DNA of 64,000 bases from Candidatus Eiseniibacteriota bacterium (GCA_034679345.1 JAXDAY010000010.1:12390-76389); one strand, 5' to 3'. Positions 3,736 to 41,317 are shown, counted from the stretch's first letter. Made by a program: numbers and translations. Notes: generated by a model from the sequence alone, not told the origin.

Positions 3736-3736
3736 C

Positions 3737-4452: not shown

Positions 4453-5742
4453 TCAGGAGGTGGAGAGGACCTCGTCGAGCAGCCGGGCGAGGTCGGCGGT
4501 CAGCCGTCGCCTCTCGAAGCGCTCGATCCCCGCGCCCACGGGGCAGACGGGACCGAGCTCGCCGGTCCGATAGAGGTCGTAGAGCCGCGCCAGATGCGCG
4601 GCGGCCGCGTCGGGATCCGTTGGAGGGGCCGCAAGGCCCGCCTGTAGCTCGCCGACGAGATCACGCGCCGCGCCATCCGGCACGAGGGCCAAGACCGGCC
4701 GACCCGCGCGGATCAGCTCGAAGGTCTTCCCCGGGAGAATGAGGCTTCCGCGCTCGCTCTCTTGCTCCAGCAGCAGCAGGACGCGCGCGCGACACAGCTG
4801 GAGGACGGCCTCGCGGTGCGGTATGGGATCGCGGAATCGGATCCGGCGCGCGAAGACCCTCCGCCGCGCGGACTCCTCGTGGGAGTCGTAGCGCGCGCCG
4901 ATGAAGTCGACCCATGTCCGCTGCGCGGCCTCGGGGCGGAGGCGGAAGAAGCGATCGAGAGCGTCGAGGAGCGGCTCGATGCTGCGATCGGGGTTCAGCT
5001 GGCCGGCGTGGAGAATCCGGAACTCCGAGTCGGGCTCGGGCGCCTGCGCGGGAAAGTCCTCCTCGTCATAGCCGTTCGGAATCACGGCGATCCGATCTCG
5101 GTCGAGCTTCGGGTATCTCCGGATGAAGTCGTCCCTCGTCGCCCCCGAGGTCACCACGAGCCGCGATGCGCGATTCACGACTCGTCGCTCCATGGAGCGC
5201 TGGATCGCATCGTGGATCGGAGTCGGGGGAGCGTAGCTCATCCGCCGGACCCAGGGATCCCTGAAGTCGGCGACCCACCCGACTCCGGGGCGGTGGATTC
5301 CCAGTCCGGCCAGATGGGCGCTGTCGGGGGATGAGGTCGTCAGGAGCACTCCGCCCTCGGCCAGGATCCTCCCGGCCACCGCGGAGGCGCGGCGCGCCCA
5401 GGAGGCATAGACGTCGGGCACGAAGAGGAAGCGGGCGACTCCACGCGCCAGGAGGTGACGCCGCTGGCTGCGGCGCGCCGCGCTCGCCCCACTCGCGACG
5501 TCGCGACCGGCGAGCCGGCCGAGAAGAGGCCCCGCGGAGATGCGAGTCACCTGGACCTCGGGGGGGACATCGTCGAGCAGGGAAGGATCGGTCATCCAGT
5601 AAGCCCCCTCGCGGACGGTGATCACATGGGGCGACCATCCGTGGGCAGGGAGGTACCGGGCGAACTTCAGGGAACGCTGGACCCCGGCGCCTCCGAGCGG
5701 GGGAAAGAAGTAGGCGAGGTAGGCGAGCCTTCTGGGTCTCAC
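4453..5742 (-). CDS. Glycosyltransferase family 4 (last gene of the glycosylation operon)
   Basis: ORF-track frame 4453..6213. The N-terminal 157 codons are R/G-rich and overlap the upstream gene. The likely true start is GTG at 5742, forming a GTGA overlap with the upstream stop. Protein begins RPRRLAYLAYFFPPLGGAGVQRSLKFARYLPAHGW and carries a GT4 C-terminal domain (EQESERGSLILPGKTFELIRAGRPVLA). Confidence 0.75.
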   Translation of the reverse strand: MRPRRLAYLAYFFPPLGGAGVQRSLKFARYLPAHGWSPHVITVREGAYWMTDPSLLDDVPPEVQVTRISAGPLLGRLAGRDVASGASAARRSQRRHLLARGVARFLFVPDVYASWARRASAVAGRILAEGGVLLTTSSPDSAHLAGLGIHRPGVGWVADFRDPWVRRMSYAPPTPIHDAIQRSMERRVVNRASRLVVTSGATRDDFIRRYPKLDRDRIAVIPNGYDEEDFPAQAPEPDSEFRILHAGQLNPDRSIEPLLDALDRFFRLRPEAAQRTWVDFIGARYDSHEESARRRVFARRIRFRDPIPHREAVLQLCRARVLLLLEQESERGSLILPGKTFELIRAGRPVLALVPDGAARDLVGELQAGLAAPPTDPDAAAAHLARLYDLYRTGELGPVCPVGAGIERFERRRLTADLARLLDEVLSTS

Positions 5743-7943
5743 TGGGGGCAGGGGCCGTCGATCAGTCCGACTCCCGCCATCCGGACCCCGGCCGGGCTCG
5801 AGAGCCGTATCCAGTAGAGCCCCGGAGCCACGGGATCCCCGGAGGCGTCCAGACCGTCCCACGCGGGAGATCCAGGGGCGAGCTGATCGAAGCGCCGCAC
5901 CAGATTCCCGGCCGCATCGACGATCACGCCGTCGGCGAGGCCGGGGAATCCGAGCAGCCGCAGGCCGCCGCAATCGCGTGAGTAGGGATTGGGGTAAGCG
6001 ATGAGCTCCCCCCCCGCGTCCATCCCGGCCGTGGGCGGGGTGATGCGGGCGAGTCCGCGCGATGTGCCCGCCCAGACCGTTCGGCCGTCCGGATCGAGGG
6101 CGAGGACCTCCGTGTTGGGATGCGGCAGATCGGGCGGCCCGTAGCGCGTGAAGACGAAGCCCTCCTCCTCCGGCGTCAACCGGACAATCCCGCCCTGCGA
6201 AGTCGCGACCCACGCCCCTCCGTCCGAGACGGGGAGCACGTCATTCACTTGCGGCGTCGGCAGGCGGTCGAATCCCGCGCCGAAGTTGGTGATCCGGCCC
6301 GGATCGATCAGGGATAGCCCACCCGTCGTCCCCACCCAGATGCGGCTGCCCTGCGATTCGATGCGGGTGATCGCATCGGAGATGAGCTTCCGCCCGGCCG
6401 TTTCCGTCGTGTAGAGGAACCATGTGTCATCGGCGCTCAGAGGGATCCGATCCGCGCCGAGATCCCACCGGTGCACCCCCGCGTCGGTGTAGCCGAGCCA
6501 GAGGATCCTGCCCACCGGACAGAGGGCCCGGACGCGATTCGCGAGCATCTGCGAACCCGGCGTGTCGGTGCGGAACTGACTCCACTCTCCCGAGGAGGCG
6601 TGGCGCATCCAAACGCCCTCGGCGAACTGCACCGCATCGGGAGCCTGATCGGAAGCGCCCCAGAGGTTGCCGAGATCATCGTATGCCAGATCTCGAAGGT
6701 TGCGCGGCGGACTCGCCTCGAAGCTCCCCTGCGAGAGTCGATCGAGATCGCAGCCGGTCTCCCGGCAGCAACATTGCGCGAACCAGAGATCCCCTTCCGG
6801 GCCGAATGCGAGATCGAAGGTCCAGTCCTGGAGCAGGCGTGGGACGCTCCAGAACACGCCGTCGAAGGTCTGATAGGTCGGCGGGGCGCCCCGCTGCGCG
6901 GTGGTCGCATGCAGGACGCGATCGGCGTCGAAGGCGAGGGCGAGATAATGGGAGCGCGCGCTGGGACCCGGGAAGACCGTGCGCACCCAGACGGAGCCGT
7001 CGAGACGCCAGAGACCGTCGAGGGCCTCCGCCGCGTCCCGGCCCCCGGCGTAGAGCGTGCCGTCGTCGTTGCGGACGAGACACGAGGCGTTGAAGCTCCG
7101 GTCTCCGACCTGAGTCCAGGAGCCGCCCCGCTCGAGCCGCCAGACTCCCTTCGCGCCCGCGGCCAGGAGATGGTCGCCCTCGGCAAGGAGGTCGACGATC
7201 GCCGGCGCGGCCGGAAGTCCCCCGGCCAGGGTCTCCCATACGCCGGAGCGCAGAACGCGGATGCCGTCATCGAAAGACGCGGTCCATTCGCCTGCGAACC
7301 GGACGATCCGATAAGCGGTCGGATCCGTCGGCCCGGTCGCATGGATCGTCCAGGCTCCCTGCGGATCGCGGTGCGCGACCCCTTCCTGAGTGGCAGCCCA
7401 GAGCCCGCCGTCATCCGCGGCCAGGTCGAGAACGTCGAAGGAGGGAAGGCCGCACAGGTCGATCCCCTCCTGACAGATGACGCGCTGCTCCCCGTCGACG
7501 AAGACGGCCAGTCCCCGGGTGGTCGCCACGAGGAGAGTGTCCGACTGGAAGCGGACGACGTGGATCCGGTCTCCCGGAATCGGGCGCAGGAGGCTTGTGA
7601 ACGGCTCCCAGGTTCCGTCGGCGGGATCGAGAATCGAGATCCCCGCCATCTCGGAGCCGAACCACAATCTCCCGTCGGGAGAAACGGCGACGCTCGTCAG
7701 CGAATCGCTCAGCAACCCGTCCGGCGCGCGATGATAGACCTCCACCGATGCGCCGACCGGATCGAAGCCGAGCACCCCGCCTCCCGTCCCTGCCCAGAGC
7801 CGCCCCTCGCTCGCGGCGAGGGCGCGCACGTCGTTCGTGTTCAGATAGACGGTGAAGCTCGGCTCGCCGGCGCCGGCCGCGACGCCGACGAATGCGATCA
7901 TGCCCAGCACGACGAATGGAAGACACGTACGTCGAAGACTCAC
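5739..7943 (-). CDS. Secreted beta-propeller repeat protein (two-component-regulator-propeller-like repeats) with C-terminal T9SS-type / FlgD-Ig-like sorting domain
   Basis: ORF-track frame 5739..8303. Likely GTG start at 7943 (GTGA overlap), giving signal peptide SLRRTCLPFVVLGMIAFVGVAAGAG. There are about 10 repeats of the type LWAGTGGGVLGFD / GRLWFGSEMAGISILD / RIWVGTTGGLSLID / TVWAGTSRGLARI. C-terminus is IAYPNPYSRDCGGLRL...GLYWIRLSSPAGVRMAGVGLI. Confidence 0.75.
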   Translation of the reverse strand: MSLRRTCLPFVVLGMIAFVGVAAGAGEPSFTVYLNTNDVRALAASEGRLWAGTGGGVLGFDPVGASVEVYHRAPDGLLSDSLTSVAVSPDGRLWFGSEMAGISILDPADGTWEPFTSLLRPIPGDRIHVVRFQSDTLLVATTRGLAVFVDGEQRVICQEGIDLCGLPSFDVLDLAADDGGLWAATQEGVAHRDPQGAWTIHATGPTDPTAYRIVRFAGEWTASFDDGIRVLRSGVWETLAGGLPAAPAIVDLLAEGDHLLAAGAKGVWRLERGGSWTQVGDRSFNASCLVRNDDGTLYAGGRDAAEALDGLWRLDGSVWVRTVFPGPSARSHYLALAFDADRVLHATTAQRGAPPTYQTFDGVFWSVPRLLQDWTFDLAFGPEGDLWFAQCCCRETGCDLDRLSQGSFEASPPRNLRDLAYDDLGNLWGASDQAPDAVQFAEGVWMRHASSGEWSQFRTDTPGSQMLANRVRALCPVGRILWLGYTDAGVHRWDLGADRIPLSADDTWFLYTTETAGRKLISDAITRIESQGSRIWVGTTGGLSLIDPGRITNFGAGFDRLPTPQVNDVLPVSDGGAWVATSQGGIVRLTPEEEGFVFTRYGPPDLPHPNTEVLALDPDGRTVWAGTSRGLARITPPTAGMDAGGELIAYPNPYSRDCGGLRLLGFPGLADGVIVDAAGNLVRRFDQLAPGSPAWDGLDASGDPVAPGLYWIRLSSPAGVRMAGVGLIDGPCPQ

Positions 7944-10018
7944 CTTGCCCCCTTCAGGCGCCCGCGGCGCACGAGAATCAGATCCAGGTCGAGGGCGAGG
8001 CTCTGGCGCCCCGCGTACTCGAGGTTCGCGGCGCAGAGAGCATCGAGAGTCTGGCCCTCCGGGTTTCCTGCGAGCGTGACCCATCCCGGGGCCGCGTCCG
8101 GCGGCAACCTGCGGTAGTCCTCCGGGAGGCGCTCCCAGAGCTCTGCGGAGAAGGGATGGATCCCGACGAGGCTCCATTCGCCGCGAAGCCACAGGAGCAG
8201 TGTAGGGTACTCCCAGAGGGCGCGGAAGATCCCCGCAGGGCCAGGACCGGGCAGGCGGCCGCAGCGAATCCGCCTGCCCGCGCGGCCGATCCGCTCGCTC
8301 CACTCGAGTCTGCGTCCCGCGAGGAGGAGGACGAGCCGTGCGGCAGCGAAGGGAATCGCCGCGACCAGAATCGCGATCGACGCGAGCGCGCCGTCAAGCA
8401 ACCGCTTCTCCCAGGAGCGCGCCGCCGGTCCGGCGCTCGAGAGGCGCAGGGCGGGAAATCCGAGAAAGTCGTCCATCCGCGCGCCGCGCCGCAAAGCCGG
8501 ATGGAATCGGGGAACGAACCGCACCGGGATCGCCTCGCGATTGAGTCGCGCCAGCACGCGTTCGGCTCCCCCACCGGGCCAGTCCTCGAAGAGCACGACC
8601 TCGTGGACTCGCTCATCGTTGACCCAGAGGCGCACCGCCTCCTCCACCTCGGCCGGCCGGCCGCCGCGAGGCGTCATGAGAATCGCCGCCTCGCCCGCCA
8701 GAGGCAGGATGTCGAAACCGAACTCCGGGTGCTGGCCGAGGCGGCGCTCGATCTCGGCGAGCGCCTCGGGCGTGGCGAGGACCCCGATGCGCCTCAGATG
8801 CAGCCGGCGCGAGCGCGCGCTCCCCTGAAGACTGAAGATCCCCCATCGCAGGAGCAGGATCAGCACGAAGGCCAAGGGCAAGAAGAGGCCCACCACCAGC
8901 CGCGAGTAGACCGGCGTCGCGAAGAGGAAGGTCGAAGCCATCATGATGAGCGCGGTGGCCGCGAGGGCGCGGCCCGTTCCGAGCACCTGCTCCCCCGCCT
9001 CCTCGCGACGCCGGCTTCGGTACATCCCGGCCAGGGCCATCGCCAGCAGTGCGACCGCGTCCGAGAAGAGGAGGAAGCGGCTGTAGCGGCCGAACCCGAA
9101 GGTCGGCTTCGTGAGGAATCCCCCGCTCAGATCGCGAATGACGTAGGCGAGCAGGAAGGCGAGATTGACGGCGATGAAGTCGGAGATCACCAGAACGATT
9201 CTGCGGATCGTCGAGGTGCGCATCTTGAGCCAATACAGGACGAAGCTCCACTTCTCGTAGTATCGAAAGGTCGATGCGAGGTGGAGCAGCAGGCCCTTGC
9301 CCGGGCGGCGCGCGCTTTCGCGCGCATAGTGATGAATCATGCTCGCGGCGGGGTGGTAGACGACCTTCCAGCCGCGCGTCTGCATCCGCTGGCACCAGTC
9401 GACATCCTCGAAGTAGAGGAAGAATCGCTCGTCCATCGGGCCGACATCCTCGAGCGCGCGGCGCCGGACGAGGAGGCTCGCGCCGATGCACCAGTCCACG
9501 GGGCGGGTCGATGCGTGGTCGTAGTCGAGCATCAGGTGCTCGCGGATCAACCGATGGTTCGGGAAGAGCCGCCCCAGGAAGGTCCGGCGCAGCAGGAAGA
9601 CGGAAAGCGTGTAGAAAGTGCGGCAGGAGTGCTGGAGGGAGCCGTCGGGATAGAGAAGCCTCGGGGCCGCGATCCCCACCGAGGAATCCCGCTCCATTTC
9701 CGCGACCAGCTCCTCGATGCTCCCGGGCTGCACTTCCACGTCGGGATTGAGCACCAGGAGATACTCCCCGCGACCCTCCTTGAGGCCCTGGTTCACCGCC
9801 CGGCCGAACCCGACGTTGCGGACGTTCTTGAAATAGCGGGCCCCCGCGGACGCGGCCGCGCGCTCCGATCGATCGTCGAGCGGGGCGTTGTCGACCACGA
9901 TCACCTCGATCCCGGGCCCCGCCCCCGCTGCGCGGATCCGGTCGAGGCAGCGGACGAGGACATCCGGGGTCCTGTAATGGACGATGACGATCGAGACGAG
10001 GAGTCCGGCCGAACTCAA
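7940..10018 (-). CDS. Fusion protein: GT2 glycosyltransferase domain + multi-TM region + C-terminal bacterial sugar-transferase (polyprenyl glycosylphosphotransferase, WbaP-like) domain
   Basis: ORF-track frame 7940..10624. The first ~200 codons overlap the upstream gene. The likely start is TTG at 10018 (TTGA overlap with the upstream stop), giving MSSAGLLVSIVIVHYRTPDVLVRCLDRI...VIVVDNAP...YFEDVDWCQRM (GT2). This is followed by 4-5 TM helices, then ...SLVGIHPFSAELWERLPEDYRRLPPDAAPGWVTLAGNPEGQTLDALCAANLEYAGRQSLALDLDLIL. The last block matches the sugar-transferase C-terminal motif (slvGPRP...vkPGiTGlaqv...Dl.Y), but the KFRTM region is divergent. Confidence 0.65.
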   Translation of the reverse strand: MSSAGLLVSIVIVHYRTPDVLVRCLDRIRAAGAGPGIEVIVVDNAPLDDRSERAAASAGARYFKNVRNVGFGRAVNQGLKEGRGEYLLVLNPDVEVQPGSIEELVAEMERDSSVGIAAPRLLYPDGSLQHSCRTFYTLSVFLLRRTFLGRLFPNHRLIREHLMLDYDHASTRPVDWCIGASLLVRRRALEDVGPMDERFFLYFEDVDWCQRMQTRGWKVVYHPAASMIHHYARESARRPGKGLLLHLASTFRYYEKWSFVLYWLKMRTSTIRRIVLVISDFIAVNLAFLLAYVIRDLSGGFLTKPTFGFGRYSRFLLFSDAVALLAMALAGMYRSRRREEAGEQVLGTGRALAATALIMMASTFLFATPVYSRLVVGLFLPLAFVLILLLRWGIFSLQGSARSRRLHLRRIGVLATPEALAEIERRLGQHPEFGFDILPLAGEAAILMTPRGGRPAEVEEAVRLWVNDERVHEVVLFEDWPGGGAERVLARLNREAIPVRFVPRFHPALRRGARMDDFLGFPALRLSSAGPAARSWEKRLLDGALASIAILVAAIPFAAARLVLLLAGRRLEWSERIGRAGRRIRCGRLPGPGPAGIFRALWEYPTLLLWLRGEWSLVGIHPFSAELWERLPEDYRRLPPDAAPGWVTLAGNPEGQTLDALCAANLEYAGRQSLALDLDLILVRRGRLKGAR

Positions 10019-10773
10019 GCGTCCACCTCGCGCGGACGAACGCGCCGCGGCCGCCCCAGGAGGCGCTTGAAAAAGAGCCGCCAGATCACGAAGACCGCCT
10101 CCGCGACGATCCGGCGGTTCATCTTGCTGATTCCCGCGCGGCGGTCGACGAAGACGATCTCGATCTCCCTGATCCTGAAGCCGAGCCGCCAGGCGAGGAA
10201 GCTCACCTCGATCTGGAAGGAGTATCCATCCGAGTGGATCCTGTCGAGATCGATCGCCTCGAGGACGGCCCGGCGGAAGCACTTGAAGCCGCCGGTCGCA
10301 TCCTTCACGGGCAGCCCCGTGATCACGCGCGAAACGACATTCGCCATGTAGGAGAGCATGAGCCGGCGCAGGGGCCAGTTGACCACCGTGACCCCGTTCA
10401 GATAACGGCTGCCGAGGACCAGATCGGCCTCCCGCGACGCCTCGATGAAGTTCGGGATCTCGTTCGGATCGTGGCTGAAGTCGGCGTCCATCTCGAAGAT
10501 CAGATCCGCCCCGTGCCGCAAGGCGTAACGGAACCCGTCGATGTAGGCGCTGCCGAGTCCCATCTTCTGCGGCCGGCGAAGGGAGTGGACCCGCGGAACC
10601 TTCGCCGCCAGCTCCTCGACCCAAGCCCCCGTCCCGTCGGGCGAGTTGTCGTCGACGACGAGAACCTCCATGTTCGGGCCCAGCGCGAGCAGACGCGGGA
10701 TGAGGGAGCGGACGTTGTCCAGCTCATCGTAAGTCGGGACGATGACCATCACACGCGGGAGGGCGTCCACCAT
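10015..10773 (-). CDS. GT2 polyprenol-phosphate glycosyltransferase (dolichyl-phosphate mannosyltransferase DPM1-like)
   Basis: 252 aa. MVIVPTYDELDNVRSLIPRLL...EVLVVDDNSPDGT...EMDADFSHDP...GSRY...TGGFKCFRRAVLE is the classical DPM1/PpmA-like architecture. ATG at 10773; stop overlaps the next gene's start. Confidence 0.85.
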   Translation of the reverse strand: MVDALPRVMVIVPTYDELDNVRSLIPRLLALGPNMEVLVVDDNSPDGTGAWVEELAAKVPRVHSLRRPQKMGLGSAYIDGFRYALRHGADLIFEMDADFSHDPNEIPNFIEASREADLVLGSRYLNGVTVVNWPLRRLMLSYMANVVSRVITGLPVKDATGGFKCFRRAVLEAIDLDRIHSDGYSFQIEVSFLAWRLGFRIREIEIVFVDRRAGISKMNRRIVAEAVFVIWRLFFKRLLGRPRRVRPREVDA

Positions 10774-10788
10774 GAGTTCGGCTCCCGC

Positions 10789-11718
10789 CTACACCTCCGT
10801 CGAGTGGAACCACTCGATCGTAAGACGCAAGGCGTCTCTCACGTCGACCTTCGGCTCCCATCCGAGGCGCTGCCTCGCCTGGGTGATGTCGGGCTGGCGC
10901 ACCTTCGGATCGTCCTCGGGAAGGGCGGAGAAGACAATCTCGCTGCGGCTTCCCGTGAGCCGCTTGATCTCCTCGGCCATCTCCAGGACGGTCATCTCCT
11001 GCGGGTTGCCGATGTTCACCGGATCGGCGAGCTCGCTGTGCATCAGCGCTTCGACCCCGCGTACGAGGTCGGTGATGTACCCGAACGAGCGAGTCTGGGA
11101 GCCGTCGCCGAAGATCGTCATCGCCTCCCCTCGGAGCGCCTGCATGATGAAGGTCGGAACCGCGCGGCCGTCGTCGCGGCGCATCCTCGGACCGAAGGTA
11201 TTGAAGATTCGAACGATCTTCGTGTCGACGCCGTGGTAGCGCCGGTAAGCCATCGTCAGGGCCTCGGCGTAGCGCTTCGCCTCGTCGTAAACCCCGCGGA
11301 CGCCGATCGGGTTCACGTTGCCCCAGTACGACTCGGGCTGGGGATGGATCAAGGGATCCCCATAGACCTCGGAGGTGGAGGCGAGCAGGAAGCGGGCCTT
11401 CTTCTCCTTCGCGAGGCCCAGGGCCTTGTGGGTGCCGATCGCGCCGACCTTCAAGGTGTGGATCGGCAGGCGGAGGTAGTCGATGGGGCTCGCCGGGCTC
11501 GCGAAGTGGAGGACGAAGTCGAGGGGCCCCTCTACGTAGATGTAGTTCGTCACATCGTATTCGATGAACTGGAATCTCGGATCGCGAATATGGCTGATGT
11601 TCGCGACGGCGCCGGTGAGGAGGTTGTCCATGCAGATCACCTCCATCCCCTTGTCGAGGAGGTGGTCGCAGAGATGCGAGCCGATGAAGCCCGCTCCGCC
11701 CGTGATGAGAGCCCTCAT
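10789..11718 (-). CDS. uxs: UDP-glucuronate decarboxylase (UDP-xylose synthase, UXS/ArnA-decarboxylase-like SDR)
   Basis: ORF-track frame 10789..12099 with a junk N-terminal extension. True start [16 protein letters not shown] at 11718 (ATGA overlap with upstream stop). Hallmark block [36 protein letters not shown]. Confidence 0.85.
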
Positions 11719-12665
11719 GAAGCATCCTCCTCCGGCCGCCTCTTCTGCACGGGAAGGTCCCGTTTGGGTTGGACCCCGGCGATCATCTCGGCGAGCAGGC
11801 CCATCGAGATGAACTGGATCCCGATGATCACGAGGATCACCCCGAAGAGGAGCAGCGGGCGGACCCGAAGCCTCTCCTCGACCACCCAGATCACGGCCAT
11901 GTAGGCATTGAGCGCAAGGCCGACGGCGAGGAAGGCGACCCCGAGCCGGCCGAACACGTGAAGCGGCGAGCGATACCTGCCGCTGTAGAAGACCACCAGG
12001 AGCAGATCGAGGAAGCCGTTGACGAAGCGATCCGTCCCGAACTTGCTGCGGCCGTGGCGCCGCGGATGATGGCGGACCTCCCGCTCCCCGACCTTCCATC
12101 CGGCCTGATGCGCCAGGACCGGCAGGAAGCGATGGAGCTCTCCGCGCACCTCGAGGGAGTCGACCACCGAGCGGCGGTAGGCCTTGAACCCGCAGTTGAA
12201 GTCATGGAGGCGGATGCCGGACACGAGGGAGGTCGCGCGATTGAAAAACCAGCTTGGCACGGTCTTCGTCCACGGGTCGTGGCGCCGCCGCTTCCAGCCC
12301 GACACGAGGTCGTAACCCTCCTCCAGCATCGCGAGCATCGGCCCGATCTCCTCCGGATCGTCCTGGAGATCGGCGTCCATCGTCACGACGGCCTCGCGCC
12401 CGCGGCACTCGGCGAATCCGAGGGATAGCGCGGCGGCCTTGCCGCAGTTCGCGCGCAGGCGGATCAGCCTGAGCCCCGGCACGCGACCGATCCTCGCCTC
12501 CACCTCGGCATCGGTGCCGTCGCTGGAGCCGTCATCGATCACCAGGATCTCCGCGCTGCGATCGAGACCGGAGACGACCTCGGCGATCTTCTCGACGAGC
12601 GGCCCGATCGACTCCGCCTCGTTGAAGGCGGGGATGAGGATCGAGATCTCGGGGCCGGTCATCAC
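11715..12665 (-). CDS. GT2 polyprenyl-phosphate sugar transferase (ArnC/GtrB-like, C-terminal TM helices)
   Basis: 316 aa. [21 protein letters not shown]...[12 protein letters not shown]...[12 protein letters not shown]...GFKAYRR, followed by two C-terminal TM helices. This is the ArnC/GtrB/DPM-type layout. Confidence 0.8.
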
Positions 12666-13627
12666 TCAGGCCTCCCGGCGAGGAAATCGGCCATCCAGAG
12701 GTTCATGCGCCCCAACCCCTCCTCGATCCCGACCTCCGCCCTGAACCCGAGCAGGCCCTTCGCCCGCATCGTGTCGGCCCCCGTGTGGCGCACATCCCCC
12801 GGAGCCGGATCGAGGTGAACGACGCGGACCGGGCAATCCGCGATCCGGCCCATCAGATCGAGGACCTGGCGGAGCGGCACGCGCGCGCCGCCGCCGATAT
12901 TGAAGGCCAGCCCCGGCTCAGTCGGGGTGCGCAGCGCCAGGATGTTCGCCTGGACGGCGTCCGAGACGAAGGTGAAGTCGCGCGTCTGCTCGCCGTCACC
13001 ATAGATGGGGATCTCCCGGCCCTCGTAGAGGGCGCGGAAGAAGCGGTGGAATCCCATGTCGGGGCGCTGACGGGGCCCATAGACCGTGAAGTAGCGCAGG
13101 CTCACTGCGGGCAGCCCGTACTGCACGGCGTAGAGCCGGACGAGGAGCTCCCCGGCGAGCTTCGTGACCCCGTAGGGAGAGATCGGAAGCTTGGCGTCGT
13201 CCTCCCCGGTCGGGAATCGCGGAGCGTCGCCGTAGACCGAGGAGGAGGAGGCGTAGACGAAGCGCCGCAACCGCCCCTCGTGGCCCCGGCACGCCTCGAG
13301 GAGCCCCTGGGTGGCCTCCACGTTGTGCCGCGCGTAGTCGTGGAAGCTGTGGCCCCAGGACTGGCGCACCCCCGCCTGCGCGGCCTGATGGAAGACGGCG
13401 TCGACGGACTCGACGATTCCGGCGAGGTCCGAGGAGAGCAGATCCTGCTCGAGCAGCCGAAACCCCGGATGCTGCAGGATTCCTGCCAGATTTCGCCGTT
13501 TCAGCCCCGGGTCGTAGTAGTCGGTGAAGCAGTCGAGCCCCAGGACCTCCTCGCCCTCGTCGAGGAGCCTGCGGCAAAGGTGCGACCCGATGAATCCCGC
13601 GGCACCGGTGACGAGCGCGCGTCCCAT
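12662..13627 (-). CDS. NAD-dependent nucleotide-sugar epimerase/dehydratase (GalE-like 4-epimerase family)
   Basis: ORF-track frame 12662..13795. True start [22 protein letters not shown] at 13627. Catalytic region YASSSSVYGD...SPYGVTKLAGE (YxxxK). Confidence 0.8.
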   Translation of the reverse strand: MGRALVTGAAGFIGSHLCRRLLDEGEEVLGLDCFTDYYDPGLKRRNLAGILQHPGFRLLEQDLLSSDLAGIVESVDAVFHQAAQAGVRQSWGHSFHDYARHNVEATQGLLEACRGHEGRLRRFVYASSSSVYGDAPRFPTGEDDAKLPISPYGVTKLAGELLVRLYAVQYGLPAVSLRYFTVYGPRQRPDMGFHRFFRALYEGREIPIYGDGEQTRDFTFVSDAVQANILALRTPTEPGLAFNIGGGARVPLRQVLDLMGRIADCPVRVVHLDPAPGDVRHTGADTMRAKGLLGFRAEVGIEEGLGRMNLWMADFLAGRPE

Positions 13628-13628
13628 G

Positions 13629-16148
13629 CTAGAGCGAATCCCGGAGCTGTTGCAGGCGCTGTCTCGCCTGCGTGTCCGCGGGGTGCCGGCGTACCCAGTC
13701 CTCGAGGATCGAGAGAGCCTCGCGCGAGCGGCCGGTCTCAATGTAGAAGGAGAAGATCTCCGCGAGCGCCTCATGGTCGTCGCGGTAGACCTCATAGCCC
13801 TTGCGGTAGATCTGCTCGGCGTCCTCGAGCCGGCCCTGGCGCTCCACGGACCGGCCGTAGAGGCGCACGACGTTGAAGTCGCCGAAGCCGCGAAAGGCGA
13901 GCTCCCCGTAGATCTCCTCCGCGCGGTCGAACCTCTCCGTCCGGTAGTAGAGGACCCCCGCGCTGTAAAGAATCGATGCCGACTGCGAGATCTTCAACGC
14001 CTCCTCGGCGGCCTGGATCGCCTCCTCCTTGCGTCCGAGGTCGAGAAGCCGCTCCGCGGCGCGGACGAAGCCGGCGGCGTAGTTCTGCACGAGCCGCTGC
14101 GCGTTCTCGTCCTTGTACACCCTCTCGTCGTAACTGCGATCGGCCTTCAGCAACCCGCGGTAGGAGTAGACCTCGCGGAGATTATGGAGAGCCAGGTCGA
14201 CGTCGATCTCCTCCTGCCCCGACGGATTTCGATCGCCGACTTTGAAGACGACTCCCTCCATCGTGAGGCGGTCGGTGAATCCCATCAGGTCGGGGACGGT
14301 GAGGGCGAAGTAGATCGGTTTCTTGCCGTACTCACGCTCGACGATCCTGCGGCTCGCGATGTCCTTTGAGTAGATGAACTCGTCCGGATCCGGGATGTAC
14401 GAGAAGATACCGTTCGACCGCAGGAATCCGATGTACGCATCCCGTGTGTGCTCCTGCCGCGCATAGGCGATGAAGCGTTCCGGGACCGAGCGGACGGCCT
14501 CGATCTGATCGTCGTTCCAGCCCACATCGACCTTCGGCGAGTAGTCCCGGAGCTGGCGGATGTACCAGTCGGTGTTGAGGAGGCTCAAGTTCAAGACGCG
14601 GACATCCCGCCGGACCTTCTCCACCTCTTGCAGGTACCAGAGAGGAAACGTGTCGTTGTCGCCATTGGTGAAGATGAGGGCGTTCGGTTCGAGCGGTTGG
14701 AGCATGTTCCAGGCCAGATCCCGCGCGAGGAAGAACTTGCTGCGGTCGCGCATCTGGTAGTAGTTCGAGCAGGTCGAGAATGCGAGGAGAACTCCGACGA
14801 GGGCGAATCCCCATCCGAGGTAGACGCCCATGCGGTCGCGCCCCTCGGAGTAGATCCACCTCCCCCAACGCCCCAGCGACGCGAATCCCAGGCCGATCCA
14901 GACGGCGAACGCCTGGTAGGCCATCGTGAAGAAGTAGTCTCGATCGCGGACCTCGTCTTCCCGGAAGTTGAGGTAGAAGACCAGCCCGATCGTCGTGATG
15001 AAGAAGAAGAGGAAGAAGCTCCAGAAGGTCTTCTTCTCGCGCCATGCATGCGTGATCAGACCGATGGCCCCCACCAGGAACGGCAGGGAGTTGGCCAGCC
15101 ATATGGGCCGGAATCCGAGCTGGTACTGATCGTGGAAGTATCTCCAGAAGTGCTTGCTGATCTGGATGCCGAACTCGGCGTTGCGGATCATGAACGGGTT
15201 GGCCGGCTTGTACTGGTCTCGAATCAATGCGAGCCAGAGGGACCTCCAGTTGGAGGGGTCGGCCTCGTTGATCATCGGATCGAGCCCGGCGCGGATCGGA
15301 AGGTAGAGGTGATTCGCCAGCCCGAAGAGCCCCAGCAGGAGGCACCAGAAGACGACGCCCCGAGGGCCGAGCGGGGACCAGAGCCTGCCGAAGAGCAGGG
15401 AGGCCGCCAGGCCGGCCGCAAGCAGGACGAGCCACCATTCCTTCAGCACGGGCAACATCGCCGGCTGGAGTCCGATCAGGACGCCGCCCACGACGAGCGC
15501 CCCGAAGGTGCTGGGGGCGAAGGTGCGATGGTCGACGAGGAGCACGAAGAGGATGAGTCCCGGCACGACGAGGAACGTCCCCATGTGGATTCCCGCGGAG
15601 ACGGCGACGAGGTAGTAGGCGAGGACGAACAGCCGGTTGTCGCGCTCCTTCGCGCCTTCCGCGCCCGCCCAGCGCACGACGAGCCAGATCGCCGCCATGA
15701 CGATCGCGCTGGAGAGACCGTAGACCTCCGCCTCGAGGGCGTTTTCCCAGTAGGTGCGCGAGAATGCGGTGAAGAGCCCCGCGGCGATTCCGCCGAGGAT
15801 GCCGATCTCGATCGGGGTCTTCTCCGTGCGTCCCCGATCCTGCCAGCGGAAGAACTCCACGGCGATCAGATAACCGAAGACGGCCCCGAGGCTCGAGGCG
15901 ACAGCGGAGAGGAAGTTGACCCGGCTGGCGATCGAGCCGATCGGAATCAGCGTGAAGAGACGGCCGATGAGCACGTAGAAGGGGGTGCCGGGCGGATGGG
16001 GAATCCCCAGGATGTAAGAGGTGGCGATGTACTCGCCGCTGTCCCAGAAGGGGCAGGTGCGCGTGAGAGTCATCGCATAGACGATCAGGCTGGCCAGGAA
16101 CACCACGAGCGCGCCGAGTTGGATCTTCCGTTTCTCGTCCATGATCAC
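13629..16148 (-). CDS. DUF2723/TMEM260-like GT-C-fold membrane glycosyltransferase with C-terminal TPR repeats
   Basis: ~830 aa. Start is at ATG 16142 or GTG 16148; the GTG makes a GTGA overlap with the upstream GT4 stop. N-terminal motif TCPFWDSGEYIATSYILGIPHPPGTPFYVLIGRLF is followed by >12 TM helices. The C-terminal ~250 aa is TPR-like (EAIQAAEEALKISQSASILYSAGVLYYRTERFDRAEEIY...). Confidence 0.7.
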   Translation of the reverse strand: MIMDEKRKIQLGALVVFLASLIVYAMTLTRTCPFWDSGEYIATSYILGIPHPPGTPFYVLIGRLFTLIPIGSIASRVNFLSAVASSLGAVFGYLIAVEFFRWQDRGRTEKTPIEIGILGGIAAGLFTAFSRTYWENALEAEVYGLSSAIVMAAIWLVVRWAGAEGAKERDNRLFVLAYYLVAVSAGIHMGTFLVVPGLILFVLLVDHRTFAPSTFGALVVGGVLIGLQPAMLPVLKEWWLVLLAAGLAASLLFGRLWSPLGPRGVVFWCLLLGLFGLANHLYLPIRAGLDPMINEADPSNWRSLWLALIRDQYKPANPFMIRNAEFGIQISKHFWRYFHDQYQLGFRPIWLANSLPFLVGAIGLITHAWREKKTFWSFFLFFFITTIGLVFYLNFREDEVRDRDYFFTMAYQAFAVWIGLGFASLGRWGRWIYSEGRDRMGVYLGWGFALVGVLLAFSTCSNYYQMRDRSKFFLARDLAWNMLQPLEPNALIFTNGDNDTFPLWYLQEVEKVRRDVRVLNLSLLNTDWYIRQLRDYSPKVDVGWNDDQIEAVRSVPERFIAYARQEHTRDAYIGFLRSNGIFSYIPDPDEFIYSKDIASRRIVEREYGKKPIYFALTVPDLMGFTDRLTMEGVVFKVGDRNPSGQEEIDVDLALHNLREVYSYRGLLKADRSYDERVYKDENAQRLVQNYAAGFVRAAERLLDLGRKEEAIQAAEEALKISQSASILYSAGVLYYRTERFDRAEEIYGELAFRGFGDFNVVRLYGRSVERQGRLEDAEQIYRKGYEVYRDDHEALAEIFSFYIETGRSREALSILEDWVRRHPADTQARQRLQQLRDSL

Positions 16149-17278
16149 TCCGGTTTCCCTCTCCCCCATTCCGAGACGCACCGCTGCAGAAGCTCCTCGG
16201 TGTCATCCGCCATCCGATCCCAGTTGAACCGGCCGGCCCATTCGATCCCCGCCCGCCCCATGGTCTCCCAGAGAGAATCGTCGCTCAACAAGTCCGAGAG
16301 GCGTCCGGCGAGGACCGGAACGTCTCCATGGGGGACCAGGAAGCCCGTCTCGCCGTGGCGGACCGACTCCCGGAGCCCGGGGGCGTCGGAAGCGACCACG
16401 GGGATCCCCATGGCGTTCGCCTCGATGACCGACAGTCCCCAGCCCTCCTTCGGAGAGGTGTAGACCAGCACCCGGGCCTTCTCCAGGATCCGGATCTTCT
16501 CGGCCCCATCCCGGAAGCCGAGCAACTCGACGCGATCCGAGAGCCCCAGGCGGCGGATCTTCTCCTCCAGGTCTCCCCGGTAGTCCCCCTCGCCGGCGAT
16601 CCAATAGCGGGCCCCGGGAACGCGTTCCAGGACCCTCGGGAGGGCCTCGATCGTGAGCTCGATCCCCTTGTACCGCTTGAGCCTCCCCAGGTACAGGATG
16701 ACCGGCTCCGGGGTTCCTTGCCGGGCGGGGGGGCGGTAGGTTTCGTGGTCGATTCCGCAGCGGACCACGGTGATCCGGGAGGGATTGATCCCCCGCCCGA
16801 TCAGGTCCTCCCGCGTCGAATCGGAGAGAACCTGGAAGCGGCTCCCGCCATAGCAGGCCGGGATGAGGCGCTCATGGAGATAGACGTAGAGCGCGATTGG
16901 CAAGCTCGCTTCCCGGAAGACCGTCGTTCCGAAGAGGTGAGGCACGTTGGCGAGGACCGGGATCTCCTTCTGCACCCAGGGCCCGAAGAAGGGGATCTTG
17001 TTCAGATCCTCGACCATGACGTCGAATCCCTGCCCCCGAAGCTTGCGCCACATCGACGGGACGACCCAGTTGAAGCTGTAGGTCGAGCCGGCTCGCACGA
17101 TCTCCATTCCGTCGATCGTCTCGCGGCGCGGGGCGCCCCGCCAGGCCCCGGTGAGGAACGTCACTCGATGGCCGCGCGCGGCCAGACGCCGGTAGATCTC
17201 CCTCAGGATCACCTCGGCTCCGCCCATCTCGGGATGGCGCACGTCACGGTAGCTCACGATGAGGATCGAGAGTGCCAT
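16145..17278 (-). CDS. Glycosyltransferase family 4
   Basis: 377 aa. The N-terminal region MALSILIVSYRDVRHPEMGGAEVILREIYRRLAARGHRVTFLT... and the GWGLSVIEANAMGIPVVASDAPGLRESVRHGETGFLV block form the GT4 (RfaB-like) signature. Confidence 0.85.
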   Translation of the reverse strand: MALSILIVSYRDVRHPEMGGAEVILREIYRRLAARGHRVTFLTGAWRGAPRRETIDGMEIVRAGSTYSFNWVVPSMWRKLRGQGFDVMVEDLNKIPFFGPWVQKEIPVLANVPHLFGTTVFREASLPIALYVYLHERLIPACYGGSRFQVLSDSTREDLIGRGINPSRITVVRCGIDHETYRPPARQGTPEPVILYLGRLKRYKGIELTIEALPRVLERVPGARYWIAGEGDYRGDLEEKIRRLGLSDRVELLGFRDGAEKIRILEKARVLVYTSPKEGWGLSVIEANAMGIPVVASDAPGLRESVRHGETGFLVPHGDVPVLAGRLSDLLSDDSLWETMGRAGIEWAGRFNWDRMADDTEELLQRCVSEWGRGKPE

Positions 17279-17282
17279 CCGT

Positions 17283-18053
17283 TCAGTCCCTCCGCCCGAG
17301 GGTTCCGATCATCGCGTAGGTGTAGAGCCCCGCCCTGGTCCCCCGCAGTTTCGAGCGGATCCAGGCGGGACCCATGTCGAGCCAGCGCGGAATGCGCGGA
17401 TAGAGCGGCAGATTCGCGATCCCGAGCTTGCGCAGCACGTAGCGGAGGCCCCGGTAGAAGAAGCCCGGCTGGAACCAGTTGCCGTCGGTCCGCACGACCG
17501 TGAAGCCGGCCTCCCGCATCAGGCGCTCGAGCTGGGCCGGGGAGAACTCGGTCTCCCATCCCGCGAACCAGCGGTTCATGAGGATCAGGAGATGCTTCGC
17601 CACGGTGTAGATGTGGAAGCGCTGCGGCACGTCGACCAGGCAATGCCCCCCGCGCGCGGTCACGCGATGGTTCTCCGCGAGCAGAGGACGCGGATCGCGG
17701 AAGTGCTCCAGGAGACCCTGATGGAAGACGAGCGCGAAGGCGCCGTCGCGAAACGGCATCCGGGTGGCGTCGGCGCAAACGCAGATGAGATCGAGTCCGC
17801 GGCGCCGGGCGTTCTCACGGATCACCTCGAAGGAGGACGGGACATAGTCGAGGACCACGACCCGGGCGCCCCGTCGCGCCAGTTCGAGGCTGTCCCGGCC
17901 GGAGCCGGCGCCGACCTCGAGGACCCGCTCCCCCTCCAGCGCCAGCCCCTCGAACTGCCGTAGGATCCGATCCTCGTTGGCGTAGACCTCGTCGATCGAG
18001 CCGGTCCGCTGCTCCCAGTAGCGATGCCAGTGACCGGGCGTGGACGCGCGCAT
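17283..18053 (-). CDS. Class I SAM-dependent methyltransferase (first gene of the glycosylation operon)
   Basis: ORF-track frame 17283..18131. Likely start is the M at 18053. VLEVGAGSGRDSLELARRGARVVVLD (motif I) ... LVFHQGLLEHF. Confidence 0.7.
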   Translation of the reverse strand: MRASTPGHWHRYWEQRTGSIDEVYANEDRILRQFEGLALEGERVLEVGAGSGRDSLELARRGARVVVLDYVPSSFEVIRENARRRGLDLICVCADATRMPFRDGAFALVFHQGLLEHFRDPRPLLAENHRVTARGGHCLVDVPQRFHIYTVAKHLLILMNRWFAGWETEFSPAQLERLMREAGFTVVRTDGNWFQPGFFYRGLRYVLRKLGIANLPLYPRIPRWLDMGPAWIRSKLRGTRAGLYTYAMIGTLGRRD

Positions 18054-18162
18054 GCAGGCTCTGGGCCCTCCTCGAACCGCGCCCCCGAGCGTAGGGCCGC
18101 CCGCAGGTGGGTTTCTCGTTGATCGAAGCAAAGTCGCAGGTTAACAGAGGTGGCGGAGGGGG

Positions 18163-18648
18163 TCAACGCGCCTCGCCCGGCCCCGCAGGCGCATCCGGCG
18201 GGGCGAGGGAGCCCGGTCGCAAGCGGCGTGCCGCGGCGTCGAGCACCCCGTTGATGAAGCCCGCCTCATCCTCTTCTCCGTAGCGGTCCGCGAGCCGGTT
18301 CGCCTCGCTCAGGATCACTCGGACCGGACTCTCCGGAACCGCGATGAGCTCGGCCAGCGCGCCGCGCAGGATCGCGCGCGCGACGGCCGACACCCGGGAG
18401 AGGGACCAGCGTTCGAGGAGCCCGGCGAGCTCGGAGTCGATCGCCTCCCGGCGCTCCGCCAGTCCCTGGACGAGTCGCATCGCGAACTCCCGACCGTCGG
18501 GAGTGAAACGGAAGCGGCCGAGGGAGAGCTCGAAGACCTCGATCGGATCGTCGCCGCTCAAGTCGGCCTCGAAGAGGGCCCGAAAGACGACTTCGCGGGC
18601 CCTTCGACGCCCTCCGCGCGCGGCCTCGGAGGGGCCGGCAGGAGTCAA
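18163..18648 (-). CDS. nusB: Transcription antitermination factor NusB
   Basis: ORF-track frame 18163..19026. The upstream part overlaps ribH. NusB domain AREVVFRALFEADL...REFAMRLVQGLAERREAIDSELAGLLERWSLSRVSAVARAILRGALAEL...EAGFINGVLD. Likely TTG start at 18648 (TTGA overlap with the ribH stop). Confidence 0.75.
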   Translation of the reverse strand: MTPAGPSEAARGGRRRAREVVFRALFEADLSGDDPIEVFELSLGRFRFTPDGREFAMRLVQGLAERREAIDSELAGLLERWSLSRVSAVARAILRGALAELIAVPESPVRVILSEANRLADRYGEEDEAGFINGVLDAAARRLRPGSLAPPDAPAGPGEAR

Positions 18649-40983: not shown

Positions 40984-41317
40984 TAGACTACCCTCCCTAG
41001 GATCCGCAGAGGTCGCACGCTGTCTCTCGCCAGCCGGACTCGTTCCTGTCTTGATCAGCCTCAGAGTTCGGGATCGATCGGATCGAGGCAGCCGAGGACT
41101 CATTGAGATGGAGACTCGACGCGAGAGCCATGCACGACGGCTTCCATGACCTGGTGCCCCCGGGATACGGGCAACCCGCTGGTGCCCGCTCTCGGGTACC
41201 ATTGAGCCGCCCGCGCGGTCTCGACGGGCACGCACCCCGGGGAGTGTCGCGCGCCTGGATTGGATGCGTCAACCCGAATCCAATCTGCGCTGAGGCTCTG
41301 AGGCTTGTGCGAAGAGC

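Follow-up and report, generated by a model that had tools for sequence, protein, structure and literature searches.

Results

A ten-gene glycosylation block between nusB and mraZ

Here we describe a block of ten genes at positions 4453-18053 of a 64,000-nucleotide (nt) stretch of DNA from Candidatus Eiseniibacteriota bacterium (GCA_034679345.1 JAXDAY010000010.1:12390-76389; hereafter the window, to whose full length all positions refer), which appears to encode a lipid-carrier periplasmic glycosylation module together with a PorZ-like exported protein. The genes, all on the minus strand and numbered 1 to 10 in order of transcription (Table 1), are intact and arranged head to tail; read from their best start codons they contain zero internal stops, and the G+C content at the third codon position follows ten consecutive minus-strand frames over 4.4-18.1 kb (the window as a whole has ~67% G+C). 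The gene boundaries are matched by independent gene calls on public contigs, and all ten domain calls were reproduced in Pfam, NCBIfam and PDB searches with E-values of 1e-11 to 1e-59.

From gene 1 to gene 10 the nine junction spacers measure +4, +2, +1, -1, -4, +15, -4, -4 and -4 nt, giving five true overlaps and four very short gaps, with 15 nt as the largest spacer. Intact frames, short spacers and third-position G+C all agree with the head-to-tail minus-strand operon proposed in a first-pass annotation of the window; the stop/start overlaps also described there exist at five junctions, the other four being the short gaps, so that "translationally coupled" is a fair label for most junctions and not for every one. 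That annotation had further extended the block to 18131, whereas gene 1 most likely starts at the ATG at 18053. The public gene call for gene 3 begins at the ATG at 16142, with a GTG at 16148 as an alternative start that has no exact public match. A scan of the block found promoter-like and terminator-like sites no more often than in shuffled sequence.

Upstream, 109 nt separate gene 1 from nusB, the last gene of a ribD-ribE-ribBA-ribH-nusB run, and downstream a gap of 200 nt leads from gene 10 to mraZ. In full, the minus-strand order is a CARDB protein gene, a giant gene, an OmpA-type gene, the riboflavin and nusB genes, the ten-gene block, mraZ, a STAS-like open reading frame (ORF), rsmH, a small ORF and ftsI, and every gene from the giant through ftsI lies on the minus strand.

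Table 1. Genes of the block, neighbouring genes of the window and the two porU-GT-C-porV loci of related genomes. GT, glycosyltransferase (GT2 and GT4, families; GT-C, fold class); SAM, S-adenosylmethionine; TPR, tetratricopeptide repeat; SDR, short-chain dehydrogenase/reductase; UGAepi, UDP-glucuronate 4-epimerase; UXS, UDP-xylose synthase; TM, transmembrane; PGT, phosphoglycosyl transferase; T9SS, type IX secretion system.
Feature	Position	Strand	Basis
Gene 1, class I SAM-dependent methyltransferase, 256 aa	17283..18053	-	Methyltransf_11
Gene 2, GT4 glycosyltransferase, 377 aa	16145..17278	-	Glycos_transf_1, Glyco_transf_4
Gene 3, TMEM260-family (DUF2723) GT-C with C-terminal TPR, 837 aa	13629..16142	-	PF11028, fold
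Gene 4, SDR of UDP-glucuronate 4-epimerase type, 321 aa	12662..13627	-	UGAepi signature
Gene 5, ArnC/GtrB-like GT2 with two C-terminal TM helices, 315 aa	11715..12662	-	ArnC structures
Gene 6, UDP-glucuronate decarboxylase (UXS), 309 aa	10789..11718	-	human UXS1
Gene 7, DPM1-like GT2 without TM segment, 252 aa	10015..10773	-	5mlz
Gene 8, GT2 with membrane CoA_binding_3 and degenerate PGT-like domain, 692 aa	7940..10018	-	Pfam
Gene 9, PorZ-like exported protein, 734 aa	5739..7943	-	signal peptide, two beta-propellers, T9SS-type C-terminal beta-sandwich
Gene 10, divergent GT4 glycosyltransferase, 429 aa	4453..5742	-	Glyco_transf_4, Glyco_trans_1_4
Outer-membrane protein: PorV/PorQ-family barrel, TSP3 repeats, OmpA	22698..24326	-	NF033709 PorV_fam 114 bits (cut-off 90), residues 40-316; OmpA 1.2e-21
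Giant surface protein, 4441 aa	24419..37744	-	TIGR04183 32.6 bits (cut-off 23) on C-terminal 100 aa; FlgD_ig, Big_13
CARDB protein	38107..41268	-	CARDB 7.9e-24; TIGR04183 27.3 bits (cut-off 23) on C-terminal 100 aa
mraZ	3737-4252	-	
STAS-like ORF	3334-3735	-	
rsmH	2291-3193	-	
Small ORF	1869-2303	-	
ftsI	2-1921	-	
porU-GT-C-porV, locus L005	5893-13760 (GCA_020633975.1)		porU 584 bits (cut-off 420); porV 194 bits (cut-off 90)
porU-GT-C-porV, locus L092	5623-14819 (ERZ25039480 contig_35578)		Pfam Peptidase_C25, PorV matches

Gene 3 and the TMEM260 family of GT-C enzymes

The product of gene 3 scores 147.9 bits against PF11028 (TMEM260_N; 3.4e-43, cut-off 24.2), PF28495 (TMEM260_2) is precomputed for the identical public protein P0001, and Pfam TPR matches occupy residues 694-836. 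A phmmer comparison with the structure of human TMEM260 (9rql; 3e-21) aligns the gene 3 motif FWDSGE with the human GGDSGE and thereby places D34 on D52, the catalytic residue of TMEM260, whose D52A mutant is inactive (PMC10214176). Across 20 gene 3 homologues D34, E37 and the motif NGDNDTFPLWY are invariant. In a Foldseek search, the AlphaFold 2 model of the protein (predicted local distance difference test, pLDDT, 85.8) retrieved STT3A, PglB, AglB, ArnT, AftB and Pmt4, while TPR proteins matched its tail; the TMEM260 structure was not returned by this search of the PDB, and the evidence for the fold thus comes from other GT-C enzymes. On these grounds of sequence and fold the DUF2723/TMEM260 assignment with a TPR tail made in the first-pass annotation is genuine, and gene 3 looks like an active enzyme.

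The bacterial DUF2723/TMEM260 family amounts to 1190 clusters (50% identity) at E<=1e-30. The searchable literature offers no function for bacterial DUF2723 homologues, and "DUF2723" is mentioned there only in the study of human TMEM260. Tandem duplication of the TMEM260-like GT-C has occurred in several lineages, including an Eisenbacteria operon (L089, 7419-12535) and the loci L010, L018, L021 and L068. A low-GC clade of the family (31-39% G+C, proteins of ~975-1000 aa; L070 9959-12895, L043, L050, L052, L053, L062 and L076) is found in great numbers in ocean metagenomes, its largest clusters reaching 350 sequences; an assignment of this clade to Bacteroidota was rejected, as the named close homologues of L070 are from Candidatus Marinimicrobia.

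A UDP-glucuronate 4-epimerase signature beside a UDP-xylose synthase

Gene 6 matches human UXS1 at 1.3e-105 (356 bits, 55% identity over 302 aligned residues), with the next-best solved family at 146 bits (1.9e-41) and ArnA at only 87 bits (1e-23), and it keeps the motifs STSEVYG and YDEAKR as well as a third motif of ten residues. Judged by this similarity it is a genuine UXS, as the first-pass annotation had called it. Among solved structures, gene 4 comes closest to the UDP-glucuronate 4-epimerases BcUGAepi (6zl6; 3.2e-73, 42% identity) and MoeE5 (5e-60, 44% identity), on which account a GalE-like identity was rejected. Three positions are known to separate the relevant families, namely P85, Q211 and T280 in UGAepis, A85, C211 and V280 in UDP-xylose (UDP-Xyl) 4-epimerases, and K85, G211 and Y280 in GalE (PMC12338863). 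The carboxylate is held by R185 in the case of galacturonic acid (GalA) and by a Ser/Thr cluster in the case of glucuronic acid (GlcA); UGAepis are reported to be typically restricted to UDP-GlcA and UDP-GalA, and BcUGAepi did not epimerise UDP-Xyl (PMC12338863).

In BcUGAepi numbering, S126, S127, S128, Y149, K153, T178, R185, Q211 and T280 are invariant in gene 4 and 13 orthologues. Position 85 is the only variable signature site, occupied by Pro or Ala among orthologues and by Ala in gene 4. We take residues 126-128 and 178 to be the Ser/Thr cluster. Of the residues expected in a UDP-Xyl 4-epimerase gene 4 therefore has A85, but Q211 and T280 stand in place of C211 and V280; a UDP-Xyl 4-epimerase was rejected on these residues, which leaves the route to arabinose put forward in the first-pass annotation without support. 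By these residues gene 4 carries the signature of a UDP-GlcA 4-epimerase, predicted to convert UDP-GlcA into UDP-GalA. Neither SDR sided with dTDP-sugar or GDP-sugar enzymes, the outcome that, like a failure of the DUF2723 call, would have spoken against the first-pass assignments.

Two lipid-phosphate sugar synthase candidates and the cytoplasmic transferases

In gene 5, matches to ArnC structures (1.4e-43) and to GtrB (sll0501; 2.7e-26) and two C-terminal TM helices, formed by TM-like segments within residues 233-288, bear out its description as an ArnC/GtrB-like synthase. Against the NCBIfam ArnC model NF007986 it reaches 155 bits, under the equivalog cut-off of 529, and its second-best NCBIfam match is PgfS (1.1e-32); the likeness, as far as sequence comparison goes, is at the level of the ArnC/GtrB superfamily. 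Searches of the ten operon proteins with Pfam and NCBIfam did not find the ArnA formyltransferase, ArnB or ArnD. With these partner genes not in the operon and the ArnC equivalog cut-off missed, a 4-amino-4-deoxyarabinose (Ara4N) pathway, to whose logic the first-pass annotation had likened the locus, was rejected.

A candidate for a second polyprenyl-phosphate sugar synthase is gene 7, which matches the Pyrococcus furiosus dolichyl-phosphate mannose (Dol-P-Man) synthase 5mlz at 1.4e-33 and has zero TM-like segments. It is paired with a gene 8 homologue in L004, L007, L031, L077, L089, L091 and L093. Neither gene 5 nor gene 7 reveals its sugar specificity by sequence alone.

Among the remaining enzymes, gene 1 (Methyltransf_11, 4.9e-21) reached no NCBIfam equivalog cut-off and is presumed to be a sugar O-methyltransferase; its type is conserved beside GT4 and GT-C genes at many distant loci. 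Gene 2 (Glycos_transf_1 2.6e-39, Glyco_transf_4 6.5e-16) has zero TM segments and is cytoplasmic, and GT4s of its type stand at 14 of the 80 metagenomic GT-C loci described below. Gene 10 (Glyco_transf_4 1.3e-11, 45 bits, cut-off 28.5; Glyco_trans_1_4 29 bits, cut-off 27) keeps its place in L004, L007, L089, L091 and L093.

Gene 8 combines a GT2 domain (1.5e-22) with a C-terminal part whose layout of TM helices, CoA_binding_3 (1.5e-7) and Bac_transf is like that of large PGTs. With 25.2 bits the Bac_transf match falls short of its cut-off (27 bits) and is limited to profile positions 90-171; that to TIGR03025 is limited to model positions 2-308 of 445. We placed the Asp-Glu dyad by the motif "DELPQ", which we take to be the catalytic dyad motif of canonical PGTs (PglC, WbaP); the corresponding position reads WE, RD, RC, VN, WQ and RI in six gene 8 homologues, in all of which the PGT-like domain is short of ~45 residues while the GT2 motifs are invariant. 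Of the GT2/sugar-transferase fusion described in the first-pass annotation the GT2 half thus stands and the other does not, and an active initiating PGT was rejected on the sub-threshold score, the lost dyad and the ~45 missing residues. From this pattern the PGT-like domain is probably a pseudo-enzyme that provides an anchor in the membrane or to polyprenyl, perhaps for its constant partner, the TM-less DPM1-like gene 7. The degenerate domain (window 7940-8700, minus strand) is retained by every gene 8 homologue, fused to an intact GT2.

A conserved unit of GT-C, epimerase and ArnC-like synthase

The proteins of the window were compared with 93 related loci. An alignment-based metagenome scan provided 80 metagenomic DUF2723 loci, with GT-Cs 27-40% identical to that of the window, and at 45 of the 80 the sequence continues for at least 2.2 kb beyond the downstream end of the GT-C gene. 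At nine of these 45 the GT-C is followed by both the epimerase and the ArnC-like GT2, at none by either one alone, and at none (0/45) by UXS. The same three genes also occur on L008, a contig of a metagenome-assembled genome labelled Verrucomicrobiia, with identities of 33% (GT-C), 54% (epimerase) and 56% (GT2). In a neighbour-joining tree of 87 GT-Cs, drawn without support values, all GT-Cs that bear the pair, that of the window included, fall into one clade; the remaining members of the clade have too little downstream sequence to tell, with the exception of the L005 paralogue, which has a porU/porV context. The ancient functional unit, as read from these sequences, would be GT-C, UGAepi and ArnC-like synthase.

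The full ten-gene order, PorZ-like gene included, recurs in five further Eisenbacteria contigs (L004, L007, L089, L091 and L093), at identities to the window of 45-69% for the GT-C and down to ~31% for the propeller protein, and the operon order first proposed for the window is thus conserved in relatives. The upstream synteny of giant, OmpA-type, rib and nusB genes extends to the L089/L090 contig, L091 and L093. Clusters outside Eisenbacteria consist of nusB, methyltransferase, GT4, a UPF0104/LPG_synthase_TM flippase-like gene and one or two GT-Cs, followed by epimerase, ArnC-like GT2, another GT4, a YfhO-like GT-C, a DPM1-like GT2 and a GT2/PGT-like fusion. UXS was seen only in the Eisenbacteria versions, where it sits in the place taken elsewhere by the extra GT4 and the YfhO-like GT-C, and where the PorZ-like gene and the last GT4 have been added.

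Several features of these related clusters deserve mention. The UPF0104/LPG_synthase_TM gene, which is MprF-flippase-like, adjoins the DUF2723 GT-C at 16 of the 80 metagenomic loci (for example L018 4459-5454, L009, L010, L031 and L074), is found also beside GT-Cs that lack the epimerase and GT2 pair, and is a candidate flippase for the related systems. Outside Eisenbacteria the DPM1-like GT2 comes directly after the YfhO-like GT-C (~870 aa; L031 15583-18866, L077 6010-9406), which suggests a second pair of synthase and GT-C that Eisenbacteria lost where UXS now sits; no YfhO homologue was found in the window. The glycosylation cluster lies directly downstream of ribH-nusB in the window (18163-22308, minus strand) and likewise in L018, L022, L026, L031, L034, L074, L079 and L091, an adjacency shared by Eisenbacteria and distant metagenomic lineages. 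The methyltransferase gene of L091 starts before nusB has ended (a 4-nt overlap of start and stop), so that transcription of the cluster together with the riboflavin/nusB genes is possible. L091 also carries an extra 402-aa gene with no Pfam match (18465-19673) between the GT2/PGT-like fusion and the PorZ-like gene.

A PorZ-like protein and the type IX secretion context

Gene 9, which overlaps both of its neighbours by 4 nt, encodes a protein with a signal-peptide-like N-terminus and a C-terminal tail of the form "AYPNP...GLYWIRL". The top PDB match of its AlphaFold model (pLDDT 90.3) in Foldseek is Porphyromonas gingivalis PorZ (5M11; E 8e-28, TM-score 0.66/0.65 over the full length, 18% identity), whereas the sensor domains of Bacteroides hybrid two-component systems (HTCS) reach TM-scores of only 0.33-0.36. 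PorZ consists of two propellers and a retained C-terminal domain (CTD) (PMC5121618), and the gene 9 model shows the same architecture of signal peptide, two seven-bladed propellers and a CTD beta-sandwich. The "sorting tail" noted in the first-pass annotation is thus a T9SS CTD, and we refer to the modelled protein as PorZ-like, not as a proven orthologue. PorZ binds the anionic polysaccharide of A-LPS, an anionic form of lipopolysaccharide (LPS), and presents A-LPS to the PorU sortase (PMC8545088). Of the two roles earlier offered for the propeller protein, glycosylation substrate or glycan-binding partner, its PorZ-like nature therefore favours glycan binding and links the operon to the T9SS. 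The gene 9 protein is identical to the public protein P0121, its close family is confined to Eisenbacteria-like sequences, and the named close homologues of both the GT-C and the gene 9 protein are from "Candidatus Eisenbacteria bacterium".

CTD-bearing T9SS cargo and a PorV/Q-family protein are encoded within 20 kb of the operon (Table 1). The gene for the latter, a possible partner in the T9SS attachment complex, comes directly after the giant cargo gene, and both it and homologues of the giant are syntenic in L090, L091 and L093; the giant and CARDB proteins, whose C-terminal ends score above the cut-off of the T9SS type A sorting-domain model, are candidate T9SS cargo or acceptors. Furthermore, two different genomes of Eisenbacteria (L005 and L092) have a GT-C paralogue between porU and porV, and in the neighbour-joining tree the L005 paralogue nests within the Eisenbacteria GT-C subclade. 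Gene neighbourhood thus ties this GT-C lineage to the T9SS attachment complex twice, independently. Divergently upstream of the L005 and L092 loci lie genes for a GT9 heptosyltransferase, a fusion of Wzy_C (WaaL-like) with GT9, and MsbA-like proteins. L019, a non-Eisenbacteria GT-C locus with porV ~7 kb away, was rejected as a third association because it is too weak. No link between Eisenbacteria and type IX secretion was found in the searchable literature.

Discussion

Proposed pathway

We propose, with a probability of roughly 0.45, that the block is a conserved Eisenbacteria envelope-glycosylation operon in which a polyprenyl-phosphate-GalA donor serves transfer by the GT-C, and in which the PorZ-like protein couples the product to T9SS cargo. 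Its core would be a three-component module of the Gtr/Arn/Rgt type for periplasmic glycosylation by way of a lipid carrier, and the two enzymes typical of such a core, a GT2 polyprenyl-phosphate sugar synthase with C-terminal TM helices and a GT-C transferase, are present. Gene 4 would turn UDP-GlcA into UDP-GalA, gene 5 would place GalA on polyprenyl phosphate at the cytoplasmic face, and the lipid-linked sugar would then be flipped; the operon itself contains no flippase gene. Gene 3, with Asp34 and its periplasmic TPR, is predicted to move the uronic acid to a periplasmic acceptor. We consider this passage from lipid-phosphate monosaccharide to GT-C to be likely, and find GalA somewhat favoured as the lipid-linked sugar; protein on the one hand, and an LPS-like molecule or glycolipid on the other, are about equally probable as acceptor.

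UXS may be a lineage-specific addition, with UDP-xylose most likely destined for a cytoplasmic transferase or for gene 7, while it would fall to genes 1, 2 and 10, together with the GT2 domain of gene 8, to build and methylate the remaining glycan. By analogy with PorZ of P. gingivalis, gene 9 would bind an anionic glycan made or modified by the operon and couple it to the attachment or decoration of T9SS cargo by way of PorU, the giant and CARDB proteins nearby being possible examples. That the link to the T9SS is functional strikes us as an even bet. Of all this, the genes present, their families, the conserved catalytic residues, the folds and the synteny are observed, whereas the nature of the sugar, the pairing of donors with enzymes, the acceptor and the coupling to the T9SS are inferred from them.

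Alternative explanations

A number of observations weigh against this proposal. The sugar handled by gene 5 is inferred solely from adjacency and the epimerase signature, the tree that unites the pair-bearing GT-Cs lacks support values, and the dyad argument for gene 8 depends on the choice of "DELPQ" as the canonical motif. Flippase domains of the GtrA, ArnE/F and GtcA types were not found among the ten gene products, and a UPF0104/LPG_synthase_TM homologue had no match in the whole window. The only notable NCBIfam match of gene 9 is to the PorZ model, at 56 bits (2.1e-15) under a cut-off of 260. Clusters outside Eisenbacteria contain no PorZ-like or PorU gene, so the T9SS link is lineage-specific and could be mere neighbourhood. 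UXS lies between the two synthase candidates and begins 4 nt before gene 5 ends, just as a pentose donor would predict; and the precedent of TMEM260, the only characterised family member, is the use of Dol-P-Man (PMC10214176), and a DPM1-like synthase is present.

The last two points lead to two of the competing explanations. The first-pass annotation had predicted a lipid-linked pentose, with UXS, alone or with the 4-epimerase, feeding the ArnC-like or DPM1-like GT2 and the GT-C moving polyprenyl-phosphate-xylose or -arabinose. UXS is indeed genuine, and all six Eisenbacteria loci keep it in the same position, overlapping gene 5 and 15 nt upstream of gene 7; ArnC, which acts on a pentose derivative, resembles gene 5 more than GtrB does; and Ala85 of gene 4 is the residue of UDP-Xyl 4-epimerases (PMC12338863). 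However, position 85 flips between Pro and Ala in orthologues while gene 4 has Q211, T280, R185 and the Ser/Thr carboxylate grip, ArnA formyltransferase, ArnB and ArnD are not found among the ten operon proteins, and the trio is conserved without UXS at the nine metagenomic loci and L008. Because the conserved unit does without UXS, a uronic acid, GalA, is preferred over a pentose as GT-C donor, and we regard the pentose donor as quite unlikely. True O-mannosylation, in which gene 7 makes polyprenyl-phosphate-mannose or another hexose for the GT-C and the product of the epimerase and ArnC-like enzyme serves a transferase elsewhere, accords with the Dol-P-Man precedent, with the archaeal Dol-P-Man synthase as the enzyme most similar to gene 7 (1.4e-33), and with those Eisenbacteria that have two tandem GT-Cs and two synthases and could assign one GT-C to each. 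It sits less well with the clusters outside Eisenbacteria, where several genes separate the DPM1-like gene, placed right after the YfhO-like GT-C, from the DUF2723 GT-C, and where it is always the epimerase and ArnC-like pair that adjoins the latter, so that we hold O-mannosylation to be unlikely.

Two further explanations concern the acceptor and the overall type of pathway. The operon might modify LPS or a glycolipid in the manner of Rgt or Arn systems and have no T9SS function, the propeller and cargo genes being mere neighbours; lineages whose ancestral cluster has a UPF0104 flippase-like gene and GT4s, as in glycolipid pathways, indeed have neither a PorZ-like nor a PorU gene close by, the riboflavin operon stands between the block and the cargo genes, and GT9 and WaaL-like LPS genes flank the porU-GT-C-porV loci. 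Yet the PorZ-like gene overlaps both neighbours by 4 nt and is kept in the operon at identities down to ~31%, the porU-GT-C-porV arrangement in two genomes is an independent second association, and the TPR tail and family precedent favour a protein partner, which together make an LPS or glycolipid pathway unconnected to the T9SS rather improbable. A classical undecaprenyl-diphosphate (Und-PP) oligosaccharide pathway for O-antigen, exopolysaccharide or capsule, initiated by gene 8 and with the GT-C as polymerase, ligase or oligosaccharyltransferase, could call on the several GT2 and GT4 genes, the methyltransferase and the resemblance of gene 8 in layout to the large PGTs WbaP and WcaJ. But Pfam and NCBIfam searches found no Wzx, Wzy, Wzz or ABC exporter among the operon genes, the PGT domain of gene 8 is sub-threshold, without its dyad and truncated in all six homologues, and the TMEM260 family with an adjacent ArnC-like synthase points to transfer of a single sugar; with neither Wzx, Wzy or exporter nor an intact PGT, this pathway is very improbable.

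Comparison with known systems

The closest parallel to the polyprenyl-phosphate-GalA route proposed here is the Rgt system of Rhizobium and Mesorhizobium (LpsL, RgtE, RgtA-D, RgtF), in which LpsL is the UDP-GlcA 4-epimerase. In both, the order is UDP-GlcA 4-epimerase, ArnC-like GT2, lipid-phosphate-GalA (predicted in our case) and periplasmic GT-C, and rgtE has been assigned as encoding a bactoprenyl-phosphate-GalA transferase that supplies the Rgt GalA transferases (PMC7663294). The Rgt GT-Cs, however, are ArnT-like and act on lipid A and LPS core, whereas that of the operon is of TMEM260/DUF2723 type with a TPR tail; in the operon the three genes are contiguous and joined by UXS, a second synthase and a PorZ-like gene. 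With Ara4N-lipid A modification the operon shares an ArnC-like synthase (1.4e-43), an SDR that decarboxylates UDP-GlcA and a terminal GT-C, but it differs in having no formyltransferase, aminotransferase, deformylase or ArnE/F, in a decarboxylase of UXS type (356 bits to human UXS1 against 87 to ArnA) and in a GT-C that is not of ArnT type.

Human TMEM260, the O-mannosyltransferase for IPT domains, has in common with gene 3 the TMEM260_N and TMEM260_2 domains, the catalytic Asp and TPR repeats after the membrane module; gene 3, in contrast, is bacterial, has 15-20% overall similarity to it, and has neighbouring donor genes that point to a uronic acid instead of mannose. Known three-component systems are composed of GtrA/GtrB/GtrX, of CsbB/GtcA/YfhO or, in Streptococcus mutans, of PgfS/PgfM1/PgfE/PgfM2. 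The operon resembles these in its GtrB-like GT2 and GT-C and, as in Pgf, in the adjoining 4-epimerase, and departs from them in having no GtrA/GtcA, a GT-C of another family, and extra cytoplasmic GTs and T9SS genes; in related lineages the UPF0104 gene fills the flippase position.

Gene 9, with its two propellers and CTD, has the architecture of PorZ in the P. gingivalis T9SS attachment complex (PorU, PorV, PorQ and PorZ) that works with A-LPS (PMC5121618). CTD cargo and a PorV/Q-family protein near the operon, and porU and porV on either side of the GT-C paralogue in relatives, extend the likeness, from which the 18% identity of gene 9 to PorZ and its score under the PorZ hidden Markov model cut-off detract. 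We are not aware of a glycan-synthesis operon in Porphyromonas that includes porZ, nor of a GT-C in the Bacteroidota attachment machinery.

Significance

The three-component logic and each of the enzyme families are already known; for a TMEM260-family GT-C with its own uronic-acid donor branch, set among PorZ, PorU and PorV, no description was found in the searchable literature. The locus provides a first coherent genetic context for the bacterial DUF2723 family, comprising a donor branch, a lineage-specific UXS and two links to the T9SS. Should those links prove functional, the anchoring or glycosylation of T9SS cargo outside Bacteroidota would use a GT-C step foreign to the Porphyromonas model, and TMEM260, a human disease enzyme, would gain bacterial relatives with predictable substrates.

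In Bacteroidota, the machinery for the O-glycan core (hexose, hexuronic acid, deoxyhexose) and the O-oligosaccharyltransferase are unidentified, and a 2025 review proposes homologues of the O-mannosylation enzymes as a search target (PMC12871550). This operon, in which a uronic-acid branch and a DPM1-like synthase accompany a TMEM260 homologue and a PorZ-like protein, is a candidate for such core O-glycan machinery. More broadly, TMEM260-family GT-Cs with their own synthases might start or decorate protein O-glycans on Ig-like surface proteins and on T9SS cargo across the Fibrobacteres-Chlorobi-Bacteroidetes (FCB) superphylum, coupled to PorU, PorV and PorZ as a bacterial counterpart of eukaryotic O-mannosylation, a generalisation that is speculative and that we would not expect to hold.

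Other features of the window

The division/cell-wall (dcw) cluster starts just downstream of the block (window 2-4338, minus strand). A sigma-70-like site at 4338-4310, upstream of mraZ, is the sole one in the scanned region. Between mraZ and rsmH the STAS-like ORF occupies an unusual place, and the small ORF before ftsI has no Pfam match. At the other end of the window, positions 42844-63956 hold genes for housekeeping and acyl-CoA metabolism, encoding ClpX, ClpP, trigger factor, an enoyl-CoA hydratase, a carboxyltransferase, a biotin carboxylase, a methylmalonyl-CoA mutase, a HEAT-repeat protein, an HD-domain protein, three acyl-CoA dehydrogenases, a 3-hydroxyacyl-CoA dehydrogenase and a CoA transferase.

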